Shown here piece by piece: positions 1,562-34,000 of a DNA stretch of 39,407 nt. The stretch's first letter is position 1; every line of letters begins with the position of its first letter. The position numbers and the translations under genes were made by a program. Location of the stretch: NCBI RefSeq assembly GCF_016903815.1, contig NZ_CP069970.1; one strand, 5' to 3'. A model generated the notes under the pieces. It did not search any database and was not told where the DNA came from. It saw only the letters and a program-made list of their open reading frames with translations. This stretch comes from Escherichia coli (GTDB taxonomy: Bacteria; Pseudomonadota; Gammaproteobacteria; Enterobacterales; Enterobacteriaceae).

Positions 1562-1792
1562 ATGAGAACCGTATCGATATTTAAAAATGGCAACAACCGC
1601 GCCATCCGTCTGCCTCGTGATCTGGATTTTGAGGGGGTGAGCGAGCTCGAGATCGTCCGGGAAGGGGACAGCATCATCCTGCGCCCCGTCCGGCCAACCT
1701 GGGGATCATTCCTAGAGTACGAAAAAGCCGATCCAGATTTTATGGCGGAGCGCGAGGATGTTGTCAGCGACGAAGGGCGATTTAACCTGTGA
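1562..1792 (+). CDS. vapB: VapB/VagC-family antitoxin (AbrB/SpoVT-type)
   Basis: 76-aa protein MRTVSIFKNGNNRAIRLPRDLDF..., closely resembling plasmid VagC antitoxin. Its stop overlaps the start of the next gene (GTGA). Confidence 0.85.
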   Translation: MRTVSIFKNGNNRAIRLPRDLDFEGVSELEIVREGDSIILRPVRPTWGSFLEYEKADPDFMAEREDVVSDEGRFNL

Positions 1793-2205
1793 ACAAGACT
1801 TATATGCTTGATACCTGTATCTGCTCGTTCATCATGCGTGAACAGCCAGAAGCCGTCCTGAAGCGTCTGGAGCAGGCGGTGCTACGCGGCCACCGTATAG
1901 TGGTCTCGGCCATCACCTACTCTGAAATGCGCTTCGGGGCTACCGGCCCAAAGGCCTCACCACGTCACGTCCAACTGGTCGATGAATTCTGCGCCCGCCT
2001 CGATGCCATCCTGCCCTGGGATCGCGCCGCAGTAGACGCCACCACGAAGATTAAAGTGGCACTGCGGCTGGCCGGGACGCCGATCGGCCCGAACGACACG
2101 GCGATTGCCGGGCACGCCATCGCCGCCGGGGCGATACTGGTAACGAATAATACAAGAGAATTTGAGCGAGTGCCTGACCTGGTGCTGGAAGACTGGGTGA
2201 AGTAA
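1789..2205 (+). CDS. vapC: VapC/VagD-family PIN-domain toxin
   Basis: PIN signature: N-terminal MLDTCIC (Asp), internal acidic residues, C-terminal TNNTREFERV. GTG start overlaps the vapB stop by 4 nt. Confidence 0.85.
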   Translation: MNKTYMLDTCICSFIMREQPEAVLKRLEQAVLRGHRIVVSAITYSEMRFGATGPKASPRHVQLVDEFCARLDAILPWDRAAVDATTKIKVALRLAGTPIGPNDTAIAGHAIAAGAILVTNNTREFERVPDLVLEDWVK

Positions 2206-2366: not shown

Positions 2367-4505
2367 TCAAGCGATACGGGCAACCGAGCTCTGGTTTGCT
2401 GCCGGTGGCAGGGCGATGAGCTTGTCACATTCCATAATCACGTACTCCGGGATGAGATCGAATCTGGACGGATCTAGTTGACAGATGAACTCATTTTCAA
2501 TGTGGTACGTTTCGTTAACGAATTTTCGTATTACCGGATGGTCCTGATCCAGTTCCAGTAAACGGAATACCTGCAGTTTTTCATAGCCGTTACGACAGCG
2601 ACGGTACAGGTTTTTTATTTCATCTGGGCTGCTGACGAGAGCCTGAAGTCGCGGGTAATCAAAACTGTCCACATACTCCCGGATATCCCGCAAGGCCTGC
2701 TGAATTTTCTCAGGAGCCATTTTGGGATAGCCCGAGCCCGCAGCGGCAGGCTCGCGATAATCCAGCGGGGCGACGCGTCGATGGAATAGATTGGATAGAA
2801 GCTGATAAGCATCACCACGTTCGTCAACGATTTCAAAGTAGCGACGAAGATAGATGAGCTTAATGATCTCCTCACAGTCTGCTGACGCGGTGATGGATTT
2901 GCAGATCTGCATGAATGTCATGATATCGCCGTCGTTAACAGGTAATTCTTCTATGACTCCAGCAGACAGGCGCAGGCAGGAGGCGGTCACCTGATTACTG
3001 AACAACCTTCTGACTGACTTCAGCGTGTCAATCACAGGCTCCACGTCATGCGTCAGCATAAGTACAGTCCGGTTCTTCAGGCATTCACCACTTGCACGTC
3101 TGAACAGCATTTCAAGAATGGCAAACTTCTTGTTTTTATCAAAAGAAGATATGGGATCATCAAGGATAATCAGTCCCGGGTTTTTTGACAGGCATTCATA
3201 CATGAATAACACAATCGCAAAGGCGTTCCGTTCTCCATAGCTGAGATGCTGGCTACCGCCGCTGACGTACCCGTCAAAATCTATGTGTCGTAGCCTGAGT
3301 TTTCTCTGCTCTCCCTCGCCGGCTATATCCACCCTGTATTTATAGCCTGCATAAGTGAGGAAATTATTGATGTTTGTTTTGTGCTGTGCGATCAGCCGGA
3401 TCATGCTGTCCCGGTGCCGGTTAATTTTTCCCTGCAGCGGTCCGGCAAGGTTTATCAGGTCCATAAGGGCCGCGTTCAGTCTGTCGGTGATCCCCTGCAT
3501 GAGTTCGGATTGCAGATCAGGGAAGAACTGCAGGTCAATCAACCTGGCAGTGAGCACCTCCCGAACGTTCTGCTGTTCCTGCAGGCTGAAAACATTCAGG
3601 CCTCTCAGCGCAGTGAGTTTCTCTGTCAGCGTATCGGTCTGGCGTTTCAACGCCACTAGGTACTCGATATGTTCGGCTTCCGGACCGTTCTGAAGCATAG
3701 TAATGGCCAGAAGGCGTTCTCTGGCGCTCTCCGTCAGGTAATTACCGAGGTTTTCCACCAGTCTGATGATAGCGGTCAGGTTTTTAATGGTGGATTTATC
3801 GTATTCCTCTCTGACTTGGCGAATTTGTGCTTCCTTTCCCGTGATATCACCGGTACAGAACGGACAGCAGCCATCCGAAAGGGGCGAAAACTCGAGTCCC
3901 TTTGTCTGCCAGTCAATCCATTCCACGCGGCGTTCACTGCGGATGTAGGGTTGATAGTTCTCAAGACCAGCCGGAATGTGGTGTATTTTATTTCCGCCTG
4001 ACAGACCTCTCATGCCGGTTGAAGAACGTGAAATCCCGGAACTGGTTGATTTGAAAGCATTACTGAGTTCCTGTAGATGGTCTATCAGAGAGTTCAGCTC
4101 AGTGTGATCCGTGAAAACAGCCCGGATCTTTTGCGTCATTTCTTCTATTTCACGCTCTCTTTCCGCATGGGCTTGATTGCGGATAAGAATATTAAAGCTG
4201 TCACTGATGAGCTCGTCCGGTTGGAACGTAAACTGACTGACGTACTCCTCGTTGAAGCACATCACGTCCCCAATCCCGTCAGCACCGATGACAATGGGCC
4301 CGGTGCTATCGGGGTTTTCTCCGCGCAGCCGGAAGGGCATCAGTGCCTGTAGTCCCTGAATGTCGTCCCGCGCCGCACAGCTTATGGCCCGTGACAGCGT
4401 ACTTTTTCCAGTACCATTTGGCGCAAACTTAATGTTCAGTTTATCGGCAGTGAGGGTGATATGTGCTCGTACGATGTTATTGCAGTGGCGTATTTCAATG
4501 TCCAT
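2367..4505 (-). CDS. ABC-type ATPase with coiled-coil zinc hook (AAA_13 family; RloC/PrrC-like candidate)
   Basis: 712 aa. Walker A FAPNGTGKST (aa 27-36), CCPFC zinc-hook-like motif inside a long predicted coiled-coil insert, ABC signature-like LSYGERN, Walker B LIILDDP, H-loop LTHD. C-terminal region has R-x3-E (LRRYFE) followed by His (LFHRR), reminiscent of the PrrC/RloC anticodon-nuclease triad. Confidence 0.6.
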   Translation of the reverse strand: MDIEIRHCNNIVRAHITLTADKLNIKFAPNGTGKSTLSRAISCAARDDIQGLQALMPFRLRGENPDSTGPIVIGADGIGDVMCFNEEYVSQFTFQPDELISDSFNILIRNQAHAEREREIEEMTQKIRAVFTDHTELNSLIDHLQELSNAFKSTSSGISRSSTGMRGLSGGNKIHHIPAGLENYQPYIRSERRVEWIDWQTKGLEFSPLSDGCCPFCTGDITGKEAQIRQVREEYDKSTIKNLTAIIRLVENLGNYLTESARERLLAITMLQNGPEAEHIEYLVALKRQTDTLTEKLTALRGLNVFSLQEQQNVREVLTARLIDLQFFPDLQSELMQGITDRLNAALMDLINLAGPLQGKINRHRDSMIRLIAQHKTNINNFLTYAGYKYRVDIAGEGEQRKLRLRHIDFDGYVSGGSQHLSYGERNAFAIVLFMYECLSKNPGLIILDDPISSFDKNKKFAILEMLFRRASGECLKNRTVLMLTHDVEPVIDTLKSVRRLFSNQVTASCLRLSAGVIEELPVNDGDIMTFMQICKSITASADCEEIIKLIYLRRYFEIVDERGDAYQLLSNLFHRRVAPLDYREPAAAGSGYPKMAPEKIQQALRDIREYVDSFDYPRLQALVSSPDEIKNLYRRCRNGYEKLQVFRLLELDQDHPVIRKFVNETYHIENEFICQLDPSRFDLIPEYVIMECDKLIALPPAANQSSVARIA

Positions 4506-4969: not shown

Positions 4970-5965
4970 ATGGCGACCACAGTAATAGCTGCCTTTAACG
5001 AATTTATGAAAGATACCGTGAATCTCAAAAAGGCAGATACCGATGACGCGCGTGCAAGTCGCGACTGGCTTATCGGTAAGATGAATGATTTTGAGAAGGA
5101 CGATAAATTTCCGGTGAGTTTTCCAGCGATCCATATTGCCTTTGGCTCCTTTGCCAGAAGAACCAAAATCCGTCCGCTTGATGATATCGATCTGATGTTT
5201 GGCTTAACCGGGCAAGGTGCCACCTATACCATCCTGAGTGACCGGATAACTGTAACCTCCTCCGGAGAGGGGTCACGTCTGCACAGTTACCGCCATTCCG
5301 GAGCTGACACCGTCTGCTCCGTCAGAATTCTGAATGCCTTTAAAAACCGCCTGCAGGACATTGCCCAGTACGCCCAGGCTGATATCAGGCGTAACCAGGA
5401 AGCTGTCACGCTGAAACTGGTCAGCAAGGACTGGAATTTTGACATCGTCCCCTGCTTTATTACCAGCGAAGATGCCTTTGGACGGACTTACTACCTGATC
5501 CCCGATGGCAACGGCCACTGGAAGTTTACCGACCCCCGTAAAGACAGGGACAGAGTCACTACTATCAATGTGCAGAATAACGGCAATGTGCTCAATGTCA
5601 TCAGAGCAGTCAAATACTGGCAGCGGCGACCGACGATGCCATCCATGAGTTCCTACCTGCTGGAAACGCTGATTCTGGACTATTACGCTGGCAGGACATC
5701 CTGCTCATCGTTTGTTGACATGGAGCTGGAAGCGCTTTTCCGCCACCTTGGTCAATCCGTGCGGTACTCTGTCAACGATCCCAAAGGCATACAGGGTGAT
5801 ATCAACTCACTTTCAGCCGAGGCACGTAAGGCGATATCGGACAGATGTTATCTCGATGCGCAAAAGGTATCGGAGGCGAGATGGTTTGAAAATAATAAAG
5901 AGTATGAAAAATCCATCAATAAATGGCGCGATGTGTTCGGGCCATTCTTTCCTGTTTACGGGTGA
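4970..5965 (+). CDS. Pol-beta superfamily nucleotidyltransferase, SMODS / cGAS-DncV-like (CD-NTase-like)
   Basis: 331 aa. Active-site pattern G59-S60, then D72-x-D74 (HIAFGSFARRTKIRPLDDIDLMF), third Asp D158 in NFDIVPCF. Good SD (AAAGGA) before the ATG. Confidence 0.65.
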   Translation: MATTVIAAFNEFMKDTVNLKKADTDDARASRDWLIGKMNDFEKDDKFPVSFPAIHIAFGSFARRTKIRPLDDIDLMFGLTGQGATYTILSDRITVTSSGEGSRLHSYRHSGADTVCSVRILNAFKNRLQDIAQYAQADIRRNQEAVTLKLVSKDWNFDIVPCFITSEDAFGRTYYLIPDGNGHWKFTDPRKDRDRVTTINVQNNGNVLNVIRAVKYWQRRPTMPSMSSYLLETLILDYYAGRTSCSSFVDMELEALFRHLGQSVRYSVNDPKGIQGDINSLSAEARKAISDRCYLDAQKVSEARWFENNKEYEKSINKWRDVFGPFFPVYG

Positions 5966-5968
5966 ATC

Positions 5969-6901
5969 ATGAATGCCATTTACACAAACCAGTCGACCAG
6001 AGAAAACATGGATTTACTGTATGCGCAGGCCCGTGTCTACGACAGGGTAAAAAACTGGAACAGACTGAATTTTCTCTTCAGCATCATCGTACCGCTCCTG
6101 CTTTCTTTCGTTACCGTATACAACCGGAGCCGGGAATTTGTCGATTCAGAGTTGTTGTCTTCGCTGTTGGGGTTATATGGACTCCTGGTGCTTACCTTTA
6201 ACATTGTTATCAGTGGACACATCTCGGCTCTGCGCAGGAAGGCAGCCTCAATCCAGGAAATGTACGACTGCCGGGTACTTGGCATCCGGCGTAATGAACT
6301 GAAGGTGGAGGAGATCCCACGGGATGACATCATCCGGGAAGCTGCATATTTTAGAGACAGCCCGGAAAAAGCACGAAAGCGATTTGGCGAAGAGGGGTGG
6401 TACGTCAGTAAGGTGTATGACGCGCCGCAGGCCGTAATGGCGCTCCTTTGCCACGGAAAAAATCTCGGCTGGGACAAATCGCTCAGGGAGGTTCTGCACG
6501 TATTTTATCTTTCCGCTTTTATTGTCTCGCCTGTCGCGATGCTTGTTTACGGCATCGTCATGAAATCCGGGCTGAATGAGATCCTCTTCTATGTGGTGTT
6601 CACACTGCCGGTCATCCGCTATTTCTTGCTTCAGTTTCTGGATAATCGCAGCAGTATGAAAAGAAGCGAGAAGCTGAAAAAGTACGTTGAGAAGGAATTA
6701 TCCGGCATAAGGGTGTCCGGAAGGGCAGAAGAAGAGCAACTGGCTTATACGCTCCGGAATATCCAAGATGAGATGTTTACCTACCGGGCCTCATGTCCGC
6801 CCGTACCCAACGGTATTCAGCTGATAATGAAGCCCAAAAATGAACGAATTTATGTTGATTACTTTGAAACAAATCTGAAGGAGCTGCACCTTCAGAAGTA
6901 A
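5969..6901 (+). CDS. 4-TM membrane protein, putative effector partner of the nucleotidyltransferase
   Basis: 310 aa. ATG is 3 nt after the NTase stop, with an SD inside the NTase 3' end. Hydrophobic helices at ~aa 33-51 and 62-86, two more at ~175-225, a ~90-aa cytoplasmic insert and an ~80-aa C-terminal tail. Confidence 0.55.
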   Translation: MNAIYTNQSTRENMDLLYAQARVYDRVKNWNRLNFLFSIIVPLLLSFVTVYNRSREFVDSELLSSLLGLYGLLVLTFNIVISGHISALRRKAASIQEMYDCRVLGIRRNELKVEEIPRDDIIREAAYFRDSPEKARKRFGEEGWYVSKVYDAPQAVMALLCHGKNLGWDKSLREVLHVFYLSAFIVSPVAMLVYGIVMKSGLNEILFYVVFTLPVIRYFLLQFLDNRSSMKRSEKLKKYVEKELSGIRVSGRAEEEQLAYTLRNIQDEMFTYRASCPPVPNGIQLIMKPKNERIYVDYFETNLKELHLQK

Positions 6902-7735: not shown

Positions 7736-7948
7736 AGGAGCACCTCAAAAACACCATCATACACTAAATCAGTAAGTTGGCAGCATCACCGGCATTCAAA
7801 ATCATTATGACCGCGATCTATTTCTGGCTGTTCTCTATCACTTTTGGCGGCATCGTCGCTCATGGGTAAGGGGAGTATATTAGCCATTTGGAACCCCACG
7901 GTCTCTTGCGGGTTTAATTAAGAACCCGCAAGAAAAATACGAATTGGG

Positions 7949-10900
7949 CTATATTTTTCCGCCTACGCCTTTAAACTTCTCAATAAACGAGACGATTTTC
8001 TGGAAAACTGCCTGTTTTTTCGTTTTATATTGCGGATTCAACGGACTAAGTTTTGGTAATGTCTCGTTTAATTCTGTGCCATTTTCGGTGGCGTATTCGC
8101 GTTTTAAAGACGTGCGAATATAGCGTTTTGCTGCATCTTCATTGAGATTTTCTTCTTTAATCAATGCTTCTGCTTCACGTAGCTGTTCGCGTTGAGCAAA
8201 CGTAAAGAATGCCTCAATGATACTGGCTTTGTCTGGTAAATCATCCAGGTTCGTTTGCTGAATAAAATCGACCACCAGGCCCTCTTTCGCCCGGTTCCCC
8301 AGGCTTGAACGAATTAAGCGTTTGACCTCTTCGATCATTTCGCCCTTGCCTTTATTTTGTCTGTTATGTTCGAAAATCAGTCCAAGGATATAATCCAGGT
8401 TTATTTCCTGAGACTTCAGCAAATCGACCTCAAAAACCACGTCATCCCAGTCAGTGGTTGATTTCTCTTTTTTATCAGCTTCTTTCTCGCGGCGCTGCCA
8501 GTCGCGAATATCGTTATAGGCAGAACGATAATCCTGAATCTTGCGATCAGCAGGGAGACGAATCGTTTGCAATTCAGCGAACTTTTCATCATCCACATAA
8601 TGTTCTGCTTTGAATTTTTCTACCTGCAACAGGATCGCTAAGATCGATTTGTTGCAGGGCTTTCAGCGTGGCAAATTCATCATAGTTTTGCAGGATGTTC
8701 TCGGTACGCAGGTATTCACCAAACAGTTTAACGAAGTCTTTCTTCTCTTTTTCACTTTCAATACTGGCAGGGTCAGGGAACCGTTGTTCCAGTTCTGCAA
8801 CTACTGCCATAAAGCCGCGCTTAGCTTCACCAGTAGCAGCATCAGTAAAGCCTTCCATATACTCTGCATAACTCTTTTCTAAAACTACATTTTTGGTGTT
8901 TTTGTCACCAAACAGCGTTATGGCATCAATAGTTGAGCGTTCCAGATCCCGGAAAGTGACGATATTACCGAAGGTTTTAGTGGCATCATAAATACGGTTG
9001 GTGCGGGAAAATGCCTGCATCAGGCCGTGAAAACGAAGGTTTTTATCGACGAATAGCGTGTTCAATGTTGGAGCATCGAAGCCAGTTAAGAACATCCCCA
9101 CGACAATTAGCAGATCGATATCCTGATTTTTAACCCGCTGGGCTAAATCACGATAGTAGTTCTGAAAACCGTTACTGTCGGTGCTGAAGTTAGTTTTAAA
9201 ATAGCTGTTATACTCACGAATTGCAGCGTCCAGAAACTCTTTAGCACTGCTGTCCATTGCGCTGGTATCAAAAGTTTCATCGGAAATCTCACCAATGGCA
9301 TTTTGTTCTTCATTAGCGGCAAAGGAGAAGATTGTCGCAATACGCAGCGGTTTATAGGTAGCCGATTTATTAGCGGCTTCCTCTTGTAACCGTTTAAACG
9401 TCGCATAATAGGCTTTCGCAGCATCCACGCTGCTCACTGCCAACATAGCATTAAAGCCTTTTGAGCCTGGGAAGGTACGGTGAGTTTTCTGGCGGAAGTT
9501 ATTCAGAATATATTGCGTAATTTCCTGTATACGCATGGGATGAAGAAACGCCTGCTGATTTTCAGCCGCACTCAGTTTTTTCTCGTCAGTTTCTGTCTCT
9601 AAAGACTTAAACTGTGGCCGCACATCGTTGTAGTCCACCTTGAATTTAAGCACTTTTTCATCACGAATCGCATCGGTAATTACATACGAATGCAATTCAC
9701 GACCAAATACGCTGGCGGTCGTTTCTGAGCCTAAGGCGTTTTCCGGGAAAATAGGGGTACCGGTAAAACCAAACTGATAATAGCGTTTGAATTTCTTCTT
9801 CAGGTTTTTCTGTGCTTCTCCAAACTGGCTGCGGTGGCATTCATCAAATATAAACACCACTTGCTGATTATATACAGACAGGTCGCTTTCTGCTTTCATC
9901 AGGTTATTGAGTTTCTGAATAGTAGTGACGATAATTTTGTTATCGTCCTTATCCAGATTTCGTTTAAGACCTGCGGTATTTTCCGATCCATTGACACTGT
10001 CTGGCGAAAAACGCTGATATTCCTTCATGGTCTGGTAATCGAGGTCTTTCCTGTCGACCACGAAGAAGACTTTATCAATAAAGTCCAGTTCTGTTGCCAG
10101 ACGCGCGGCTTTAAAGCTGGTCAGGGTTTTACCAGAACCGGTAGTGTGCCAGATAAAGCCACCACTTTCGGGGTTAGACCAGTTTTTCGCTTTATAGGAG
10201 CTGTTGATTTTCCATAAGATACGTTCAGTGGCGGCAATCTGGTACGGTCGCATCACCAGTAGCGTCTGGACTACTGTCAAAAACGCTGTAGTTCACCAGA
10301 ACATTCAGCAGAGTATGTTTCTGGAAAAAGGTAGCGGTAAAGTCTTTGAGGTCTTTAATCAGCGTGTTGTCTGATTTCGCCCAATTCATGGTGAAGTCAA
10401 AACTGTTTTTATCGCGCTTTGTCGTGTTGGCAAAATAACGGGTATCGGTGCCGTTAGAAATGACAAACAGTTGCAGATACTTAAACAGGGAATTTTCGCT
10501 GTTAAAACTCTCTTTACTGTAACGATGTATCTGGTTGAAAGCCTCACGAATCGCCACCCCGCGTTTTTTTAGTTCGATTTGCACCAGCGGTAAACCATTA
10601 ACCAGGATCGTGACGTCATAACGGTTAGCATGAGAACCCGTCTGTTCAAACTGCTGGATAATCTGCACCTTATTGCGCATGAGATTCTTTTTATCTATCA
10701 AATAGATGTTCTCAAGTCGCCCGTCGTCAAAAATAAAGTCGCAGATATAGTCGATATGGATTTTACGGGTTTTATCCAGAATACCATCGCTGGGGTTGTC
10801 CAGATACTGCTCCGTGAAGCGCCGCCACTCGCTGTCATTAAACATCACACCATTGAGGCTCTGAAGCTGTTCCCGAACATTAGACAGCATTGCCGACTGT

Positions 10901-11067
10901 GATTTTACGGAAATAAATTCATAACCCTGATTCCGCAGGTCCTGAATCAGTTCACGTTCCAGGTCCGATTCGCTCTGGTAGCTGTCGCTTGTTTGCTCAG
11001 CTTTGATGTACTTATCAAGGACGATAAAGTTATTGGATTCAGCAATGGTGTGTGTTTGATGAGTCAT
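7949..11067 (-). pseudogene. hsdR: type I restriction enzyme R subunit, split into three frames by two +1 frameshifts
   Basis: Three consecutive minus-strand ORFs in three frames (10225-11067, 8589-10280, 7949-8629) that together read as one ~1040-aa HsdR (N-terminal nuclease region, RPYQ-type helicase start, C-terminal domain). Frame changes coincide with A5/T5 runs at 10279-10283 and 8615-8619; removing one base at each restores a continuous frame. Confidence 0.7.
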
Positions 11068-14180: not shown

Positions 14181-14402
14181 ATGCAATCCATTAACTTCCG
14201 TACCGCGCGCGGCAACCTTTCTGAAGTGCTCAACAATGTTGAGGCCGGGGAAGAGGTTGAAATCACCCGCAGAGGCCGTGAGCCAGCAGTAATTGTCAGC
14301 AAGGCTACTTTCGAAGCCTACAAAAAAGCGGCGCTGGATGCTGAATTTGCATCCCTGTTTGACACCCTGGACTCCACCAACAAGGAACTGGTTAACCGAT
14401 AA
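14181..14402 (+). CDS. phd: Phd antitoxin (prevent host death)
   Basis: 73 aa, [39 protein letters not shown]..., recognised as P1 Phd; TAATG overlap with doc. Confidence 0.95.
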
Positions 14403-14782
14403 TGAGGCATATATCACCGGAAGAACTTATTGCGCTTCATGATGCGAATATAAGCCGCTACGGCGGCCTGCCGGGAATGTCAGATCCGGGTAGGGCAGAG
14501 GCCATTATCGGGAGAGTTCAGGCCAGAGTTGCCTACGAAGAGATCACCGACCTTTTCGAAGTCTCCGCCACCTACCTGGTGGCTACAGCGAGAGGGCATA
14601 TATTCAATGATGCCAATAAGCGTACCGCGCTAAACAGTGCGCTGCTATTTCTACGCCGTAACGGGGTGCAGGTATTTGATTCACCAGAACTGGCAGACCT
14701 TACCGTAGGGGCTGCGACCGGAGAGATATCTGTATCTTCTGTCGCCGACACGTTACGTAGATTGTATGGTTCCGCGGAGTAG
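14402..14782 (+). CDS. doc: Doc toxin (Fic-fold kinase, death on curing)
   Basis: 126 aa, [25 protein letters not shown]..., recognised as P1 Doc. Confidence 0.95.
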
Positions 14783-16663: not shown

Positions 16664-17857
16664 GTGACCTGGGACGATCACAAGAAGAATTTTGCTCGCC
16701 TGGCGCGAGATGGTGGTTACACCATCGCACAGTATGCCGCCGAGTTTAATCTTAACCCTAATACTGCACGTCGTTATCTCCGTGCCTTCAAAGAAGACAC
16801 CAGGACAGCGGACAGCCGCAAGCCAAATAAACCAGTCAGGAAGCCACTAAAAAGCATGATCATTGATCACTCTAATGATCAACATGCAGGTGATCACATT
16901 GCGGATGAAATAGCGGAAAAACAAAGGGTTAATGCCGTTATCAGTGCCGCAGTCGAGAATGCGAAGCGCCAAAATAAGCGTATAAATGATCGTTCTGATG
17001 ATCATGACGTGATCACCCGCGCCCACCGGACCTTACGTGATCGCCTGGAACGCGACACCCTGGATGATGATGGTGAACGCTTTGAATTCGAAGCTGGCGA
17101 TTACCTGATAGATAACGTTGAAGCGCGGAAGGCCGCTCGCGCTATGTTGCGTCGGTCCGGGGCCGATGTTCTGGAAACCACTCTTCTGGAAAAGTCTCTT
17201 TCTCATCTCCTTATGCTGGAGAACGCCAGGGATACGTGTATTCGTCTGGTGCAGGAAATGCGCGATCAGCAAAAAGACGATGATGAAGGGACTCCGCCTG
17301 AATATCGTATCGCGAGCATGCTAAACAGCTGTTCCGCGCAGATAAGCAGCCTGATCAACACCATTTACAGCATCCGGAATAACTATCGAAAAGAAAGCCG
17401 GGAGGCGGAAAAGCACGCTTTATCTATGGGGCAAGCTGGCATTGTTAAGCTGGCATACGAACGAAAGCGTGAAAATAACTGGTCAGTGCTGGAAGCAGCT
17501 GAATTCATCGAGGCGCATGGCGGAAAAGTGCCGCCCCTGATGCTGGAGCAAATCAAAGCCGATCTGCGTGCTCCTAAGACCAATACCGATGATGAGGAAA
17601 GGCAAACAGCCGTCGGTGGCCCTTCTCTTGAAGATCTGGACAAAGTTGCGCGAGAACGGGCCGCCAACCGCCGCGCCGATGCCGCATTGTGGATTGAGCA
17701 GCGTAGGGAAGAAATCGCCGATATCGTTGATACAGGCGGTTATGGAGATGTTGATACTGAAGGTGTATCAAACGACCCATGGCTGGAACAAGACCTGGAC
17801 GAAGACGAGGAGGAAGACGAAGAAGTTACCCGCAAGCTATACGGGGATGATGATTAA
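16664..17857 (+). CDS. pacA: terminase/pacase small subunit PacA
   Basis: 397 aa, GTG start after AAAGGAAG; contains the pac hexamer clusters in its 5' part; TAATG overlap with pacB. Confidence 0.9.
16857..17016. other. pac packaging site: four TGATCA(N) elements (16857-16897), then three (16987-17016)
   Basis: Seen directly: TGATCAT, TGATCAC, TGATCAA, TGATCAC, then ~90 bp, then TGATCG, TGATCA, TGATCAC. Each has a GATC Dam site. This is the established P1 pac architecture inside pacA. Confidence 0.75.
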
Positions 17858-19341
17858 TGGCCAGAAGTTGCGTAACGGATCCACGTTGGCGCGAGCTGGT
17901 GGCGCTATATCGTTATGACTGGATTGCTGCCGCTGATGTTTTGTTCGGCAAAACACCTACCTGGCAGCAGGATCTGATTATTGAGTCTGTGCAGGAACAG
18001 GGTAGCAAGACATCTGTTTCGTCTGGTCACGGTACCGGGAAATCAGACATGACTTCTATCATGATCATGTTGTTCATAATCATGTATCCCGGTGCCCGCG
18101 CCATTATCGTTGCGAACAAAATTCAGCAGGTAATGACCGGTATATTCAAGTACATCAAGATAAACTGGGCTACTGCCACCAGCCGTTTTCCATGGCTTGC
18201 TGATTATTTTGTTCTGACAGAAACCGCTTTCTATGAGGTTACTGGTAAAGGTGTATGGACTGTAGTACCGAAGGGCTTTCGTCTGGGAAGTGAAGAAGCT
18301 CTCGCCGGTGAACACGCAGATCATCTTCTGTATATTATCGATGAAGCCTCCGGTGTCAGTGATAGAGCTTTCGGTATCATCACCGGTGCTCTTACCGGAC
18401 AGGATAACCGCATCTTATTGCTGTCACAGCCTACACGCCCAAGCGGCTATTTCTACGATACACACCATAAACTGGCCAAGCGTCCTGGTAACCCTGATGG
18501 CGTTTATACGGCGATCACGCTTAACAGTGAGGAATCACCGTTGGTAACGCCAGCATTTATCAAAATGAAGCTGGCGGAGTACGGCGGGCGTGATAACCCT
18601 ATGTACATGATTAAGGTACGCGGCCTATTCCCTAAATCACAGGATGGCTTCCTTCTTGGACGTGATGAGGTTGAACGTGCAACGCGGCGGAAAGTCAAGA
18701 TTGCCAAAGGATGGGGCTGGCTTGCATGTGTGGACGTTGCTGGTGGTACGGGACGGGATAAGTCCGTTATCAATATCATGATGGTGTCCGGCCAGCGAAA
18801 TAAACGCCGTGTAATCAACTATCGAATGCTGGAATACACAGACGTTACAGAAACGCAGCTTGCCGCCAAAATTTTCGCAGAATGTAATCCTGAGCGATTC
18901 CCAAATATCACCATAGCGATAGACGGCGATGGCCTGGGTAAAGCAACGGCGGATCTGATGTACGAGTATTATGGTATTACCGTACAGCGTATACGCTGGG
19001 GTAAAAAGATGCATAGCCGTGAAGATAAGAGCCTGTACTTTGATAAACGTGCTTATGCCAACGTTCAAGCCGCAGAGGCCGTAAAATCTGGTCGTATGAG
19101 ACTGGATAAGGGTAATGAAACTATTGAGGAAGCGTCGAAAATCCCTGTAGGGATTAACTCCGCAGGTCAATGGAAGGTGATGAGTAAGGAGGATATGAAG
19201 AAAAAACTCAACCTGCACTCACCAGACCATTGGGATACATATTGTTTCGCTATGCTGGCGGATTATGTTCCCCAGGATGAAGTGCTTAGCGTCGAAGACG
19301 AAGCGCAGGTTGATGAAGCTCTGGCATGGCTTAATGAATGA
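17857..19341 (+). CDS. pacB: terminase/pacase large subunit PacB
   Basis: 494-aa ORF translationally coupled to pacA; terminase-like ATPase region. Confidence 0.9.
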
Positions 19342-21049: not shown

Positions 21050-21901
21050 TTATTGCGCGCTTTCGGGGTTGTCGTTTACTGGCTGCCCCTTCTTGGTTTT
21101 ACGGCTGCGCGTAACTGATGCGGCTGACTTAACCTTTTTCTCTTCGCGAGTGATGGCAATTTGTTTTTTTACATTTTCAATATCTGCCAGGCGATATATT
21201 TTTGCTTGCGGCCAGCGGTCGCAGATGATCGGTTCTATGGAGTCATAAAGGCTAAATTTTGCTTTTTCGAATTCACCGTTGATGATAATTCCATCACGGA
21301 GAGTTTCATCGCAGATAAACACGCCACACAGTGGCACATGGTAACTAACTGATTTACCATCATTGTAGTTAGGGCTACTGGAAATGTAGTGGACGCGCAG
21401 CATTGTTTCGCTAAAGCCGTGTACGCGCATACGGAATTTTTCATCCTCCGGGTACTGCTTCATTAGCTCTTTTGTTGCTTCCAGGTTCTCTATGTATTTC
21501 GCACTGTGCTCATTGATCCCCGCGCTTTTTTGGATGCGAATGTCCTTATCAATCAGATGAATAATGCGGCCAGCGGTCATGTTGACGCTGTTCACAGCTT
21601 CTGTCTGATAAGTTGTAACCTTACGCACACCGCGAAGGATGTTAGGCACTGGATATAAAATAGTCTTTGGGATATTGAGGTCTGGGTACTGTTCCAGTTC
21701 CCGCGCCATTAAAGTCCATTTATCAATTTCAGCCTGAATGCTGTCAGTTTCTTTGAACGGTAGAACGACAACCGGGCGTACAGGACGACCGTCGCTGGCT
21801 GTATCAACGTGTTGGGCGCGTGCAACAGCTTTTTTTAGAAAGAGATCCCTGAAGCTGACGAACTCCTGGTACAGTTGTTCGCCGTAGACATAATTTATCA
21901 T
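21050..21901 (-). CDS. c1: C1 repressor of lysis (primary immunity repressor)
   Basis: 283 aa, MINYVYGEQLYQEFVSFRDLFLKKAVARAQ..., recognised as P1 C1. Confidence 0.95.
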   Translation of the reverse strand: MINYVYGEQLYQEFVSFRDLFLKKAVARAQHVDTASDGRPVRPVVVLPFKETDSIQAEIDKWTLMARELEQYPDLNIPKTILYPVPNILRGVRKVTTYQTEAVNSVNMTAGRIIHLIDKDIRIQKSAGINEHSAKYIENLEATKELMKQYPEDEKFRMRVHGFSETMLRVHYISSSPNYNDGKSVSYHVPLCGVFICDETLRDGIIINGEFEKAKFSLYDSIEPIICDRWPQAKIYRLADIENVKKQIAITREEKKVKSAASVTRSRKTKKGQPVNDNPESAQ

Positions 21902-23046: not shown

Positions 23047-24078
23047 ATGTCCAATTTACTGACCGTACACCAAAATTTGCCTGCATTACCGGTCGATGCA
23101 ACGAGTGATGAGGTTCGCAAGAACCTGATGGACATGTTCAGGGATCGCCAGGCGTTTTCTGAGCATACCTGGAAAATGCTTCTGTCCGTTTGCCGGTCGT
23201 GGGCGGCATGGTGCAAGTTGAATAACCGGAAATGGTTTCCCGCAGAACCTGAAGATGTTCGCGATTATCTTCTATATCTTCAGGCGCGCGGTCTGGCAGT
23301 AAAAACTATCCAGCAACATTTGGGCCAGCTAAACATGCTTCATCGTCGGTCCGGGCTGCCACGACCAAGTGACAGTAATGCTGTTTCACTGGTCATGCGA
23401 CGGATCCGAAAAGAAAACGTTGATGCCGGTGAACGTGCAAAACAGGCACTGGCGTTCGAACGCACTGATTTCGACCAGGTTCGTTCACTCATGGAAAATA
23501 GCGATCGCTGCCAGGATATACGTAATCTGGCATTTCTGGGGATTGCTTATAACACCCTATTACGTATAGCCGAAATTGCCAGGATCAGGGTTAAAGATAT
23601 CTCACGTACTGACGGTGGGAGAATGTTAATCCATATTGGCAGAACGAAAACGCTGGTTAGCACCGCAGGTGTAGAGAAGGCACTTAGCCTGGGGGTAACT
23701 AAACTGGTCGAGCGATGGATTTCTGTCTCTGGTGTGGCTGATGATCCGAATAACTACTTGTTTTGCCGTGTCAGAAAAAATGGTGTTGCCGCGCCATCTG
23801 CCACCAGCCAGCTATCAACTCGCGCCCTGGAAGGGATTTTTGAAGCAACTCATCGATTGATTTACGGCGCTAAGGATGACTCTGGTCAGAGATACCTGGC
23901 CTGGTCTGGACACAGTGCCCGTGTCGGAGCCGCGCGAGATATGGCCCGCGCCGGAGTTTCAATACCGGAGATCATGCAAGCTGGTGGCTGGACCAACGTA
24001 AATATTGTCATGAACTATATCCGTAACCTGGATAGTGAAACGGGGGCAATGGTGCGCCTGCTGGAAGATGGCGATTAG
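23047..24078 (+). CDS. cre: Cre site-specific tyrosine recombinase
   Basis: 343 aa, MSNLLTVHQNLPALPVDATSDEVRKNLMDMFRDRQAFSEHTWKMLLSVCRSWAAWCKLNN..., recognised as P1 Cre. Confidence 0.98.
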   Translation: MSNLLTVHQNLPALPVDATSDEVRKNLMDMFRDRQAFSEHTWKMLLSVCRSWAAWCKLNNRKWFPAEPEDVRDYLLYLQARGLAVKTIQQHLGQLNMLHRRSGLPRPSDSNAVSLVMRRIRKENVDAGERAKQALAFERTDFDQVRSLMENSDRCQDIRNLAFLGIAYNTLLRIAEIARIRVKDISRTDGGRMLIHIGRTKTLVSTAGVEKALSLGVTKLVERWISVSGVADDPNNYLFCRVRKNGVAAPSATSQLSTRALEGIFEATHRLIYGAKDDSGQRYLAWSGHSARVGAARDMARAGVSIPEIMQAGGWTNVNIVMNYIRNLDSETGAMVRLLEDGD

Positions 24079-28063: not shown

Positions 28064-31000
28064 TTATGCGTATTGTTGGATGACGGCCAGAACGTCCGCC
28101 ACGTTGTGTTTTGTCTCGATAATCCACCAGTTACCCGGGAAATCGCTGTTCTTCGCCTTCGCTGGCAGCCAGCGAGCGCCGAATTTCGCCTTGATTGCGT
28201 CTTTCGCACGGAAAAGAACGCCTTTCATGCCTGAGGCTTCCTGAAGCCCAAATACCTCGCCAGCGGCGAATTTTGGTGCGTACATCATCTTCAGGTCGGC
28301 GGTGGATACGCGATAATTCAGACCAAGAGACTGAGCTATGCTGGTGGCATCACCCTGTATTGATGATAACTCTTCTTGTTTCTCGTTTCTGGCGGCAATT
28401 TCTTCCTCCGTGATGTTGCCAAGGGCCAGGTTTATCCGATCAGCGTCGGCCTGTTTCTCTTCATCGGTGCGTCCGGCAAGAACCGTGTTAACTCTCTGCA
28501 ATATCTCCACATGATTCTTGCGCATGCTGAGCAATTCCGGCGTAACCTCGTTAAGATCCACCAGCCCAAGGATGGCAAGGTCGGAAAACATTGATACCAG
28601 GTTGTAGGTCATGCGATAGCTGAGTTGACCATAGGCTGATGGCAACTTCACCGCATCCATTTGATAGGCATCCATAAATTTAGAGCCGTCGTTTACGACA
28701 TCCGCAATTGCCGGTGTGATTTTTCCTGTGGTGGCGGCCTCCCTGATTGCTGTTACCCACGATTGAGTCAGCGCGGCGACTGCATGATTCAGATTGGCTT
28801 TCCGTTCTGCTGCAATGCGCGCACTTGCTGCGTCCATTGCCTGCTTGATCTCGTCTTTATTGCTGTAAATGCCAATGGTGCCAAACTGTGCTGTGGTGAT
28901 CTCATAATCTGACGCCCGGAACTCATGGGTACCGAAAATGGCATTGGTGACCTCAAGTTCAGAATCCCCGTTACGAGTAGCCCCCTGGCTTGTTTTCTCC
29001 GGCATTTTTGCGATCGCATCCGCTATTTTCTCCTGAATTGCTTCAGGGGATAGCGTATCTCCGTATGACGCGATTACATCGCCATAATTGGAGCCAAACA
29101 ATTCAACCAGGAATGTTTCTGCCGAACGGATCTGGCGGTTATTCCCTTCCGACATCATACCAAGCACCCATTTTGCAATTGACGACTTCAGCGCGCCGTC
29201 ACGGCGATCCGGGTAAACCGCATGCTTCAGTGGGTCCGTATAGGTGCCAACAAAATCAATGCTATAGCCTGACTCTGTAGTCTGAACGCCGTATGAGTCA
29301 GTGATTTTGATCATGCCGCGCTGCTGGAAACGGTAGAAATCGTCACAGGAAATGATGTCGTTAATCCCGGCGATGGAGACGCCACCACTGATTTTCTGCA
29401 TAACAGCATCTTCATCGGGAGTTACATCCACCTGTTTATCCAGCGTCTTCACATCCCAGTTACCCGATTTGGTGCCTTTGAAGGTAAAGATGATCTCCAC
29501 GTCTGCGCGCTGGCTGTCGAAGTCCAGCGACTTAATGCGAACGATATCACCGGCACAATCATAGTATTGGCCTACACGCCATGAGCGATCGCCGATAACA
29601 AGGAACTCATTCGCATGGTTAACCAGATCAGGATCAACATCCAGAATGCCTTTATTTATTGCATCCTCCACCAGCGGGCGCAGGCGTTTGATATCCGTCG
29701 CGGCCTTCTGAGTACGGTTCAATAATTTCTCATAGCGGGAGATGGCCTGAGAGATATTAGCCTTGCGCTGAATGGCGCTTTTCAACGACGCGCGATACTG
29801 TGCTAACAACATACGGTCTGTGTGATGGACGCTACCCCAGCGGGCTTTCCAGTCTGCGTTATCAGCTGCTTTGGCCATTACCGCCTGTTTGAATTTGGCG
29901 ACGTCGGCGGTGGTCTTTTCAAGTTCCGCTTTGCTTCGCTCCAATTCAGCGGTAAGTACCTCCACATCCTCACCAGCTGCGTGCTGCGCCTTGATGTAGT
30001 TCTGAAGGTCGATAGTAGCCTGTTCTTTCTGGCGAGCGCGTTTCGCAGCTTTCGCCTTATCCATTTGAACCTGCATCATTACCAGACGTTCGCCATCATC
30101 CTTAGCGGTATACATCTGCATTTCGATCATATCGTTGGCGTCGGCGTTCTCCATTTCTGACTTATCTGAACGGAGGATATCGGAGATCCAGCCTGCTTTA
30201 CGCTTCAGCGTCTTCAGTCGGTATTCATCGAAAGAACCCTTGCCGCAGTAGTAATGAACGCGAACGCTTGCACGGTTGGAGCCAACTCGAGCACCGCGAC
30301 CGTTACGCTGTGCGATACTGGCTGGTGTCCATGGCAACGTCAGATGATGGATGTCAGTCGTTCCTCGATGCAGGTTGATACCCACCTCTGCCTTTTTGTT
30401 GCAGATGATGATCGGAGTCCGGCCCTCCTGGAAGTCGGCTGCAATCTTTTCCAGACCGCCCAACGACATTTCATTTTGCTGCGCGATATAGGCGTCATAC
30501 AGAGCCATTTGCTCGTTGTATTTCGCTATCTGTGCATCTGTTGGTTCATCCGGTAACTCTTTCGGCGGTTTAACCGCTTTCAGTTTCTTACCGGTTTTAC
30601 CTGCCTCGGCAACCGTCTGAGCATTCAGGATCCCCACCTTTGAAGGTTCAAGGTTAAGAGCATTGCAGATAATGCGCTTGAGCTTCTGGTGCTGCGTTTT
30701 TTCGTCCGTGAAGATGATTTGCTTACCTTCCGGGAAAAACGCCTTCAGCGTGGCGATCAGCTTCGCGTATTTGGGTGTAACGGGGTGAGTTACGGTCTGT
30801 TCGTCAATGCCAAACTTGGCCAGGCGATTATTCACTTCCTGCTCAAATGCTTCCGGTACCTGCAACTGAATAAACTCGCCCTTATCTATCAGGGAGTATT
30901 GCGATTGCTGCGTGATCGAATCATCACTGTCGTCGTCTTCGCTGGTGGCTTGTTTAGGCAAACTGTCCGCCAGCTGCTGCACCGCATCGGCGTACTCCGG

Positions 31001-34000
31001 CAGGAAACGATAGGTGATCCTGCGATAGTACAGGTCCATGTCAGTACATACGCGGTCCATATCCCTGATTATTGAGAAGATCGGACGGGCTTTCTCGTGC
31101 TCAATCACGCCGTCTTCATTGACCGAGGTCGTTACGCCATTGTTGGCTTTGGCTGCCGCTTCCGCCTGCTGACGCAATTCTTCATACGCCGCCAGTTGTT
31201 CTTCCGTAAGTGGTGCATCCTGCTGGTGTTCGTCCAGTTCCGGGATCTCCACGGTATCCTTAACGTCTTCCGCCGTTTTAAGCGTTGTCCAGCGATGGAA
31301 TATGCCGCGCAGCGCATCAAGGTTTTCAAAGCCCACCAGCGCCATTTTTTCTTCAACTTCACCGCTGATTTTCTGTACCGTTTCCAGCCTGGTCTTGCCG
31401 AAGAATTTAACGAAGTCATCAGGACCGTAGATCCCCATCTTCTGCCAGTATTCCTTCGGCAGCACATGAGAAAGCATGTTGTATGCATCGATCGGGGTGT
31501 TAACGACTGGCGTTGCAGTCAGGAGAACCGGTCCGCGCCCACCATTCTTTTTCATCAGGTACGCGTTTTTAATTGCCATATCCCGCGCCGATTGCGCCAC
31601 CGCGCTGGTGGGCAGATAGGCCAGTTGTGACGCTTCGCGACCATTTTTATAGCTATTGCGGTAGTTGTGACCTTCGTCAGCGATCACACTATCGAAGCCC
31701 ATATCCTCAAAGTACGGATACTTCTCTGCTTTTTCGGTGCCGGTATCTGAATACTCCGACAATACCCGGCGACGCGCGGCCTCTTTGCGGTGGGAGTCGG
31801 AGTCCATTGCGCTGGCTACGCGCCCGGCGGCAACGAAGTCATAAAGCATATCCTGTGCATGCTCATCTACGGTGTCATCACGTAGCGGAATGCGGGCGTA
31901 TTGTTCTTTGGTAAACACGACTGCACGGTAATTTGAGTGCGGGATCGCGTTCATCCGCGCCGTGATAGTGGCTTCATCTGCCAGTTTTAGGGCATCGCGC
32001 ATAACTGGAGTGCCATCAGTACCAAGAACAGGTTTACCGTTCTCATCGAGCACCGGCACCTGGCGAATCTGATCGCCATCCATCAGCACATCAAGACCGA
32101 CGAACAGGTAGTTACTGAATGCCTCTTCACTCAGGAATTCTTTTGCTTCGTAATACCAGTTTTCCAGCACTGATTTAGGCACTACATACGCAGTACGGGT
32201 GGAGCGACCGTTCTCATAGTTGAACGCCTCAAGCGCCAGCGCGGTCGTAGTTTTACCCAGCCCGGTGCCGAAGCCCAGGATGCCGCGCCCATCTTCGGAC
32301 AGTCGGCGCACTTCGCTATTCTGGTAATCAAATGGCTGGCGCTTACCGCTTAATCCCTTCAACCCAAGCGGATCGCCAGAGTGTTCATACGGGATATTGC
32401 TATTGAACACATCGTTGTATTTGGCAACCAGTTCATCGTAGCGATCGTGCGTCTTGATCCACTTATTGAACTGGTCCTCAAGCAGTGCCATCTGCTCGCG
32501 GTAGCCGTTCGCCGTCGCGCTATCTTTGCCACCGATACGCGCACCATTGAGATACTTTTCCAGCTGTGCCGGGAACCCGGTCGCGTTTTCACCTGATTTA
32601 CGGTCCCACTCGTAGCGGATCTCGCCTGTTTCTTTATCCTTGCGCTGGACGACACCGTATCGGTGCCCGACGAACAGGCCATCACCACCGTGATAGGTGT
32701 CAGAAACCATTTCGTCGCCTTCCAGCTGCACTGACTGCACATAGCGCAGATCCGGATAGCCGTTTTCCTGCAAAAACTCCAGAATGACGGAGCGGTCGAA
32801 CCAACGGCTATTGAGCTTAAAGCGGATATTCTCTGCTGGCGTCTTGATGCGCTTCTCTTCGATCGCTGCCAGCTGATTAAGGACGTTGTTCTTTACTGGA
32901 CCGTCGGGGAGTGTGGCAAGGAATTCCTGTTTTGGAGCCACTATCTCGTTAATGTCGCCGCTGGTGGCGCGGGCGAACGGAACAATCCCGCCATACGGAG
33001 AAACCGCAATACCAGGAGTGCTGGCCAATAAATTAAGCAACTCTTCATCACTGGCTGGCAGTTCGCCGGTAAACGCAAGGCGGAAATCATCGAGCTGGAT
33101 TGGATCGCGGGTAAGATCGCTATAGAGATAACGCAGGGTGTCCTGATAGCTGGTGGAGTCATAACTGGCGCTGGAATCATGCGTAACCAGCTTTCCTGTT
33201 AGCTCGTCAGAAATAGTGCCATCCAGCTTAATTGCACCACGGAAAGCAAACCAGGCGCGCGCACCGCTTCCCGATAATTTAGCTATCGGACCGCGACCGG
33301 GGTTACCAAAACGGTCAATCTCTGCCTGCAAACGGGACACCAGAGAAAGGCGCTGCTGTTCGATTTGTTCAGCACTATGCCCGGCGGCCTTCATATCCTG
33401 ATATTCAATTAACATCCGGCCAATCATCGCCCCACGATACAAGCGTTCACGGTATTTTTCAGGCTGGCTGTTAATCCAGTCCACCAGCTGCACCATATCG
33501 TCGCTGATTGATGTGGTGTACTTATCGCGGACATTTGCCATCTGGGTAAATGTCATACCGAGACGGCCTTCTGTTGTAGTCAGGTTACGCTGAAGAGCCT
33601 CCCAGCTATCCGCGCCATAACTGGCAGCATCAATCTTAAGCTCCTTACCAGCATCAGCTTCAATCCAGCGACCACCAGCATATTTTTGCCATACGCCATT
33701 AATCAGGCGCATTTCCCCTTCATCAACAACATCTGCGGTCGGTGACGGTTCAGCCATATCGAGCAAAGACCAGTCGATACGACTTTCGAAACGATGAATC
33801 AGCTTCGCTTTAAGAGCCTGGTTATCAATCTGACCGTCGGCACGAACCTCAATACGCCCCTGGAAGCCCTTTTCCTGGGTGCCATGAACAAACCGGCGGC
33901 CATCCTTTTCAAACCACTTGCCAGAAATAAACGTTGGCCAAAGCACATTTGCCGATTCAAGAGTGCTTTCATCCACCAGGGGGATTTTCTCAGCCATCTC

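Follow-up and report, generated by a model that had tools for sequence, protein, structure and literature searches.

A plasmid-borne Rad50-like ABC ATPase of Escherichia coli with a CPxC insert and a conserved helical C-terminal domain is a candidate anti-phage gene

The window analysed here is a 39,407-nucleotide stretch of Escherichia coli DNA (RefSeq assembly GCF_016903815.1, contig NZ_CP069970.1). It carries at 2367..4505 on the minus strand a complete coding sequence for a 712-residue ATP-binding cassette (ABC) ATPase, which is the sole long open reading frame (ORF) at that place in the program-made ORF list and belongs to the PADLOC candidate family PDC-S06 (model PDLC04889). The gene has an ATG start codon and an AAGGA ribosome-binding site upstream, and a simple promoter scan upstream gave nothing convincing. 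It is 100% identical to WP_000350635.1. Among 5,426 complete E. coli genomes, 724 have the gene, in 748 plasmid and 13 chromosomal places. Its share of these genomes is thus about 13%, yet its RefSeq label is only 'AAA family ATPase'. It is also present on 920 of the 72,556 plasmids in PLSDB, chiefly conjugative plasmids of Escherichia, Salmonella, Klebsiella and Citrobacter, and in none of 50,697 phage records. The plasmids bearing it are mostly from Enterobacteriaceae of clinical and livestock origin. The protein is a candidate anti-phage gene product and not a known anticodon nuclease.

The ABC motifs expected of RloC are all present and conserved. Conservation was counted in an alignment of 48 full-length relatives that extends to 27% identity, and the positions of motifs and domains are on the minus strand. 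Walker A (P-loop) GTGKST occupies residues 31-36 (4398..4415), with N30 and K34 invariant and G31 and G33 conserved in at least 90% of the sequences. The signature-like LSYGERN covers residues 421-427 (3225..3245; L421, S422 and N427 invariant), and the Pfam AAA_13 and ABC transporter matches are centred on it. Walker B and the start of the D-loop, LIILDDP, lie at residues 445-451 (3153..3173; D449, D450 and P451 invariant), and the H-loop LTHD at residues 484-487 (3045..3056; H486 invariant). Further invariant columns are F382, Y390, F434, S454, D456 and K459. An earlier sequence-only reading of this DNA had quoted the 712-residue ORF and these motifs, and every motif translates at the expected coordinates. 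Their occurrence goes far beyond what chance would give.

The ABC head is split by an insert. The full-length AlphaFold model (predicted local distance difference test score, pLDDT, 76.6) shows the head divided by a helical segment at about residues 108-400 (3306..4184, from AlphaFold2 secondary structure and Foldseek), and its top Foldseek matches are SMC, Rad50, SbcC and RecN heads with coiled coil (best E=1.5e-7). In the AlphaFold2 model, the insert of about 290 residues consists of coiled-coil arms (111-149 and 334-385) that flank a helical sub-domain with the CPxC motif. As modelled, it is not a simple long Rad50 hairpin. The motif itself is CCPFC at residues 213-217 (3855..3869), between Walker A and the signature, which is the place of the CxxC insert in RloC. 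C214, P215 and C217 are invariant in the 48 relatives, and W196, W199 and G203 are nearly so. Such invariance among divergent sequences means that the CxxC is genuine and strongly selected. It is probably a zinc site and is a candidate zinc hook. The hook region (residues 197-296) aligns to positions 241-344 of another PDC-S06 model, PDLC04886. The claims of a CxxC in the insert and of a stand-alone AAA_13/Rad50-like ABC ATPase were thus supported by Pfam, the 48-sequence alignment and Foldseek.

The assignment to PDC-S06 covers almost the whole protein. Residues 1-698 match positions 1-688 of the 693-position PDLC04889 profile with E=3e-286. Other PADLOC matches are weak and restricted to the ATPase part: LmuB, the second-best family (7.5e-14, residues 114-490), mad3, AriA and PrrC. 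Pfam gave AAA_13 alone, in two pieces (21-142 and 418-489), NCBIfam nothing above cut-offs, and the PDB sequence matches were nucleotide-binding domains of ABC transporters around the signature motif. The PDC families are 145 candidates predicted through 'guilt by embedding' in restriction-modification (RM), BREX, DISARM and Hma systems (bioRxiv 10.1101/2024.01.29.577857). The name HEC-09 was considered for the ATPase family and rejected, since HEC-09 is an NYN protein.

The family is broad. At E<=1e-30 it has 340 clusters (50% identity), and at least 425 loci were found in species-representative genomes. Full-length relatives about 55% identical occur in Alphaproteobacteria, Desulfobulbaceae, Kiritimatiellia, Cyanobacteria and other groups, and relatives in the candidate phyla radiation are about 40-55% identical. 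The patchy spread over all major phyla together with about 55% identity indicates frequent horizontal transfer; such identity across distant phyla suggests strong constraint and high mobility. A chromosomal paralogue of equal length and about 68% DNA identity is present in about 100 E. coli records. On the E. coli MS6198 chromosome (locus L093, 9539-11677) it lies in an integrase-bounded island beside ychF/pth, with a 1589-residue DEAD/DEAH helicase.

The C-terminal domain (residues 523-712; 2370..2939) is family-specific and is the candidate effector. Modelled separately with the 48-sequence alignment, it reached a pLDDT of 93.5 and a predicted template-modelling score (pTM) of 0.88, and the predicted structure is all-alpha with one small beta bridge. 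R554 and H668 are the sole invariant positions in the last 200 residues (48/48 each). R554 belongs to R554-R-Y-F-E558 (2832..2846) in a predicted helix 546-560, where R554 and E558 (45 Glu, 3 Asp) lie on one helix face (i, i+4). H668 belongs to K661-F-V-N-E-T-Y-H668-I-E-N671 (2493..2525), in which helix 657-665 is followed by a loop bearing H668, with a Lys at -7. In this segment the alignment has K661 in 41 of 48, Asn or Asp at N664 (32 and 12), E670 in 43 and N671 in 47. Between the two segments, S571 is kept in 46, R648 in 47, and K643 is Lys in 45 and Arg in 3. The strictly conserved polar residues of the domain are limited to R554, E558, S571, K643, R648, H668 and N671.

The sequence-only reading had proposed an Arg-Glu-His triad with the His 17 residues after the Glu. 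Its R-x3-E part stands. The His at +17 is H575 (2781..2783), which is His in 37 and Lys in 11 of the 48 relatives, and because of these lysines it is not a credible catalytic residue. H668 lies at +110 from E558 (a spacing of 109 residues) and, unlike H575, is by its conservation a credible catalytic residue. Other folds were considered for the domain. A His-Me/HNH finger around Y-H668-I-E-N was rejected, as the model has no beta-beta-alpha hairpin: strand 675-677, the single one in the vicinity of H668, is flanked by helical or loop segments. PD-(D/E)xK and TOPRIM folds were rejected because the domain is all-alpha. No Pfam match to TOPRIM or DUF4435 was found in the protein, and the PADLOC ATPase-Toprim, AriA and AbiLi matches cover the P-loop only, so that the TOPRIM/OLD or DUF4435-type tail that had been named as the alternative to a nuclease of the RloC/PrrC kind was looked for in Pfam and PADLOC and not found.

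The order of conserved residues resembles that of HEPN ribonucleases (RNases). PrrC homologues have [FY]-H-[FL]-x-F-L-R-N-I-L-E-K followed by N-R-I-L-N-L-S-S-H, and the ATPase family has K-L-I-Y-L-R-R-x-phi-E followed by K-F-I-N-E-T-[FY]-H-I-E-N. Common to both are phi-L-R-x-phi-phi-E and then [RK]-phi-phi-N-x-[ST]-x-H. R554-x3-E558 followed by K661-x6-H668 therefore mirrors the R-x3-E and R-x6-H of PrrC. In HEPN domains helix 2 bears a conserved acidic residue, helices 2 and 3 are separated by a variable insert that is often helical, and an Rx4-6H motif at the end of helix 3 extends into the next loop; HEPN families can be aligned at the motifs only. The predicted tail fits this order, with E558 in helix 546-560, a 95-residue helical insert, helix 657-665 and H668 in the following loop. 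By this mapping, which is our own assignment, the motif order and helix topology of the tail are suggestive of HEPN. The conserved Arg, His, Glu, Asn, Lys and Ser residues, with no acidic metal-binding cluster, suit a metal-independent RNase better than a DNase. A triad of R554, E558 and H668 with an enlarged insert would be compatible with an RloC-like RNase.

To describe the genomic context of the family, 80 of the at least 425 loci were fetched, and all their neighbours were clustered, with RM and BREX seeds extended by jackhmmer. These loci cover Proteobacteria, Bacteroidota, Chlorobi, Firmicutes, Actinobacteria, Planctomycetes, Verrucomicrobia, Nitrospira and candidate-phyla-radiation lineages, and RM/BREX linkage was counted on 79 of them. 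An RM or BREX gene lies within 10 kb in 23 of the 79 loci, and in 19 the ATPase gene is directly adjacent to type I or III RM or BREX genes, often with gaps of at most 55 bp or with overlaps. The adjacent genes are co-directional, except one extra opposite-strand HsdR-like ORF in locus L025. The ATPase gene stands after hsdS or hsdR in type I loci, beside Mod or Res in type III loci, and directly after brxL in BREX-1 loci. Of 25 loci with at least 51% identity to the window protein, about 16 are linked. In exact-sequence look-ups, one homologue directly followed a Mod-Res pair of type III, a second was part of a type I locus (hsdM, Bro-N, hsdS, DUF2188, ATPase, AlbA_2, hsdR), and three further homologues were solitary. 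The restriction linkage that had been suggested for the gene therefore holds at the family level in other genomes.

No neighbour is obligate, because even the most frequent neighbour family occurs in at most 8 of the 80 loci. Fic, RhuM, DinD/Bro-N and AlbA_2/HATPase_c_4 genes accompany the ATPase in type I loci. In several of them the ATPase gene overlaps by 4 nt a gene for a Schlafen/AlbA_2, HATPase_c_4 and helix-turn-helix protein, and hsdR follows. Loci of the Schlafen/AlbA_2 or Fic/RhuM/DinD/Bro-N type are L028 (12103-13464), L066 (a 453-residue ORF after the ATPase) and L005-L007 (the gene after the ATPase). The overlapping downstream genes of L006 and L009 were considered as a conserved partner and rejected, as they are unrelated to each other. 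RM/Fic/RhuM-type neighbourhoods have been described for RloC-like ABC-HEPN proteins (PMC3710099).

One sub-clade is coupled to SbcCD-like genes. The coupling is seen at five loci in four unrelated taxa (two Legionella, Acidithiobacillus, Desulfuromonadales and a deltaproteobacterial metagenome-assembled genome), where the predicted start of an SbcD-like gene lies within the ATPase ORF (an overlap of 4 nt at four of these loci) and an SbcC-like gene is next (L015 10001-16610; L017 6750-13407; L020 3408-10014; L024 10001-17051; L069 10001-16622). A sixth locus, L036 from Legionella qingyii, has the same arrangement and is a duplicate of L015. Across the taxa the SbcD-like proteins are 78-86% identical, versus 61-74% for the ATPases. 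The place of these genes is always immediately after a type I RM or BREX-1 system. They form a mobile three-gene operon, and the sub-clade appears to be new to the searched literature. It is a concrete lead that would tie restriction to DNA-end processing and a Rad50-like sensor. Within the 80 loci, an SbcD/Mre11 partner is limited to these six, and there is none in the window.

We interpret the 712-residue protein as a self-contained, horizontally mobile defence protein of the RloC style, with a probability of roughly 45%. The Rad50-like ATPase and hook module would be the sensor or switch, reacting to DNA ends or to a restriction or BREX system's state. It would control the C-terminal domain as a toxic effector, most probably a metal-independent HEPN-like ribonuclease, in which R554, E558 and H668 would be the counterpart of R320, E324 and H356 of PrrC. 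Activation would shut down translation and the infection would be aborted. In this interpretation the protein would work like RloC, yet it cannot be counted with certainty among the RloC/PrrC nucleases. A PrrC homologue recovered from the E. coli Ecol_AZ146 chromosome (locus L002, 4234-5478, 414 residues) lies between hsdS and hsdR in an hsd locus 94% DNA-identical to that of the window, and matches the PADLOC PrrC model with E=4.6e-133. It also matches the C-terminal parts of the PDC-S06 models PDLC04886, PDLC04897 and PDLC04894, which are therefore RloC-like with a PrrC-type tail; the window protein matches these three in the head and hook only. Since PDLC04886 fits both the hook of the window protein and the PrrC nuclease domain, relatives carry a proven RNase effector at the same position.

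Several results weigh against a HEPN-like effector in the tail. The basic residue before H668 is Lys instead of Arg, and the position differs in 7 of the 48 relatives. The PADLOC PrrC model finds the protein with E=3.3e-4 and over residues 421-473, around the ABC signature, only. Comparison by hhalign of the tail with a 32-sequence alignment of the PrrC nuclease domain gave a probability of 0.24%, and the two sub-regions around R554 and H668 gave no alignment to the expected PrrC motifs. Pfam scans, run on the tail and on each of the 48 aligned tails, returned scattered single-member noise and no consistent family. None of the 50 AFDB50 matches listed by Foldseek, of 71 at E<=0.001, is described as PrrC, RloC or HEPN; these 50 are P-loop/AAA ATPases or uncharacterised proteins and fragments, and most full-length entries have about 700 residues. 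A variable gene (SbcD, AlbA_2 and others) is translationally coupled downstream in at least 12 loci, and the effector could thus lie elsewhere than in the tail. A literature search for PDC-S06 found no experimental work.

These negatives leave room for a tentative alternative, which we hold to be less probable. The C-terminal domain has no recognised relative at the sequence level, and it may be a previously unrecognised, non-HEPN effector fold. The family would then represent a new class of back-up immunity that is added onto RM and BREX systems and uses a hook-bearing Rad50-like ATPase to detect DNA ends or restriction failure, and one sub-clade would be a three-gene machine with a dedicated SbcCD-like nuclease.

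It is unlikely, on present evidence, that the protein is a true but highly diverged RloC/PrrC anticodon nuclease, whose HEPN tail has an insert larger by about 70 residues and cleaves tRNA anticodon loops. The R-x3-E followed by basic-x2-N-x3-H comes in the same order as in PrrC, the ATPase and hook scaffold is common to the RloC-like PADLOC profiles, the RM/Fic/RhuM context is that of ABC-HEPN proteins that are RloC-like, and homology visible at motifs alone is usual for HEPN families. However, the published Glu-to-His spacing is 31 residues in PrrC and 36-52 in RloC (R-x3-E-x36-52-H), against 109 here, Lys replaces the motif Arg, and all profile and fold comparisons were negative. Pfam AAA_13 spans the Ecol_AZ146 PrrC homologue at model positions 525-686, including R-x3-E and the catalytic His, and its match in the window protein ends at position 572. 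The tail aligned to a single PrrC sequence with a probability of 0.05% by hhalign, BLAST-level comparison with PrrC was negative, and the tail, used as a profile against PDB sequences, gave GCN4 coiled-coil noise only. The profile comparison used PrrC sequences, as two homologue searches that started from the PrrC nuclease domain brought up only PrrC orthologues and no genuine RloC. Because profile, alignment and fold comparisons were all negative, membership of the tail in the PrrC/RloC nuclease family is not demonstrated. The PrrC model, the extent of AAA_13 and the 0.24% hhalign value do not support the anticodon-nuclease tail proposed by the sequence-only reading; the suspicion in the same reading that the protein belongs to a clade distinct from canonical RloC proved right.

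We also doubt that the protein is a sensor or scaffold with no catalytic effector of its own, in which the tail binds DNA or partners and recruits nucleases (SbcCD, restriction enzymes or toxins) in the manner of LmuB. The stop codon of the ATPase gene overlapping the SbcD-like start, the stronger conservation of SbcD than of the ATPase between those taxa, the overlapping AlbA_2, Fic or unknown genes downstream in other loci and the rank of LmuB among the PADLOC families all point in this direction. Against it, most loci, that of the E. coli plasmid gene among them, lack a coupled neighbour, and the invariant R554 and H668 look catalytic and not structural. Fic, RhuM and AlbA_2 genes are moreover common independent passengers of type I RM loci (PMC3710099).

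It is very improbable that the gene encodes a non-defence Rad50/SMC-like ATPase for DNA repair or plasmid maintenance that is kept by IncF plasmids. The SMC/Rad50 head fold, the presence on 920 mostly conjugative PLSDB plasmids and the position next to vapBC and other maintenance modules would fit such a role. The patchy cross-phylum spread at about 55% identity, implying frequent horizontal transfer, the repeated insertion within or behind RM and BREX operons, and the variable presence among otherwise similar plasmids argue against it, as do the short coiled coil and the lack of an Mre11/SbcD partner at most loci.

In the window, a vapB/vapC toxin-antitoxin pair (1562-2205, plus strand) is convergent on the ATPase gene. 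The same arrangement is found in pAPEC-O1-ColBM (locus L001), so vapBC is the most constant neighbour of the gene on E. coli plasmids. The divergent nucleotidyltransferase operon noted from the sequence is indeed there and is a two-gene type I cyclic-oligonucleotide-based anti-phage signalling system (CBASS; 4970-6901, plus strand), made up of genes for an oligonucleotide cyclase (PADLOC E=4e-152) and for an S-4TM membrane effector (E=1e-165). Read along the minus strand, hsdM (14004-12442) comes first, then hsdS (12445-11189), hsdR and IS1 (7735-7038), followed by CBASS on the opposite strand and the ATPase. The type IC-like hsdR (7949-11067) is broken by frameshifts near 10270 and 8627 and occupies three reading frames. 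The split gene reaches its C-terminus at 7952 and aligns to residues 5-1037 of an intact homologue, and a related phage record also annotates hsdR in pieces (HsdR1, HsdR2). From its sequence, hsdR is probably a pseudogene, and therefore the hsd system may modify DNA without restricting it. The end of hsdS (11189) and the start of hsdR (11067) are about 120 bp apart with no gene between them, which is where PrrC would be encoded, and the ATPase gene is 3.4 kb past hsdR across IS1 and CBASS.

The hsd locus reached its place beside the ATPase gene through a junction. Window positions 14000-38000 are 99.8% identical to the P1-like phage vB_EcoM-673R5 (c1, cre, darB, pacAB, phd/doc), in which the same hsd locus is flanked by pmgS and phd/doc. 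P1-like plasmids share with the window only the DNA from 7790 rightwards, at the IS1 edge. A mosaic junction at about 7736-7790 thus joins the left part (vapBC, ATPase, CBASS), which is IncF-type DNA, at IS1. Because the hsd proximity is an IS1-mediated IncF/P1 junction, it is no evidence of a functional tie to that RM system. The distance of about 3.5 kb from a type IC hsd locus reported from the sequence was therefore right as a distance and does not hold as an ancestral linkage. The embedding in or behind RM/BREX systems that defines PDC-S06 is likewise a property of the family and is not ancestral in the window. The P1-like genes are doc (14402-14782), pacAB (16664-19341), c1 (21050-21901), cre (23047-24078) and a 2255-residue DarB-like gene (28064-34831). 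An IS200/IS605-family TnpB RNA-guided endonuclease gene (36661-37791, minus strand; NCBIfam E=8e-118) also lies inside the P1-like region.

It is scarcely credible that the ATPase functions as a part of CBASS, VapBC or the type IC RM system: physical proximity and the 9.6-kb block vapBC-ATPase-CBASS-IS1-hsdR in 153 E. coli genomes (versus 543 with the full gene) favour it, but pAPEC-O1-ColBM has the gene and vapBC without CBASS or hsd, another plasmid has hsd-IS1-CBASS without the gene, hsd belongs to the P1-like element joined at IS1, and none of the three systems recurs in the 80 distant loci.

If the effector role is true, the C-terminal domain would be a new module for the ABC-ATPase defence superfamily. 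If the protein is an abortive-infection RNase, its gene would be relevant to phage therapy and plasmid ecology.

Among known systems, OLD, Gabija and PARIS-type ABC ATPases have a TOPRIM nuclease domain or partner, a feature which this protein does not show. LmuB of Lamassu, Rad50/SbcC and SMC heads share the ABC head with a coiled-coil insert, and one sub-clade here is operonic with SbcCD-like genes; in contrast, the insert here is much shorter, there is an extra C-terminal domain and there is usually no partner nuclease. PrrC, the EcoprrI-linked tRNA-Lys anticodon nuclease, shares the ABC ATPase with a C-terminal effector, the R-x3-E followed by basic-x6-His and, at the family level, the type I RM linkage. 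PrrC differs in its length of about 400 residues, in having no insert or CxxC, and in being encoded between hsdS and hsdR.

RloC, the wobble-nucleotide-excising anticodon nuclease of Geobacillus kaustophilus (PMC2610378), has a similar architecture. Both are one polypeptide with split ABC motifs, a CxxC insert and a C-terminal non-ATPase domain with R-x3-E and an essential-looking His, both are occasionally embedded in RM loci, and the hook here fits an RloC-like profile. RloC has about 800 residues, versus 712 here, a Glu-to-His spacing below half of that here and an Arg before the His where this protein has Lys, and the tail of this protein has no detectable similarity to the PrrC/RloC nuclease. 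The protein is thus RloC-like in architecture, and its RloC membership is not demonstrated. The HEPN superfamily (PMC3710099) shares with it, by our own helix mapping, the all-alpha fold, the acidic residue in an early helix, the large insert, the basic-x6-His, the fusion to an ABC ATPase and the RM, Fic and RhuM neighbourhoods, although the protein gives no HEPN profile or significant structural match and has Lys in place of the motif Arg. PDC-S06 is a heterogeneous set of 13 AAA_13 models, several of them RloC-like with a PrrC-type tail; this family is a predicted one, and through its full-length PDLC04889 match the protein is a direct member. The protein therefore belongs to a family already catalogued as a defence candidate, and it follows the known theme of an ABC ATPase joined to an effector.

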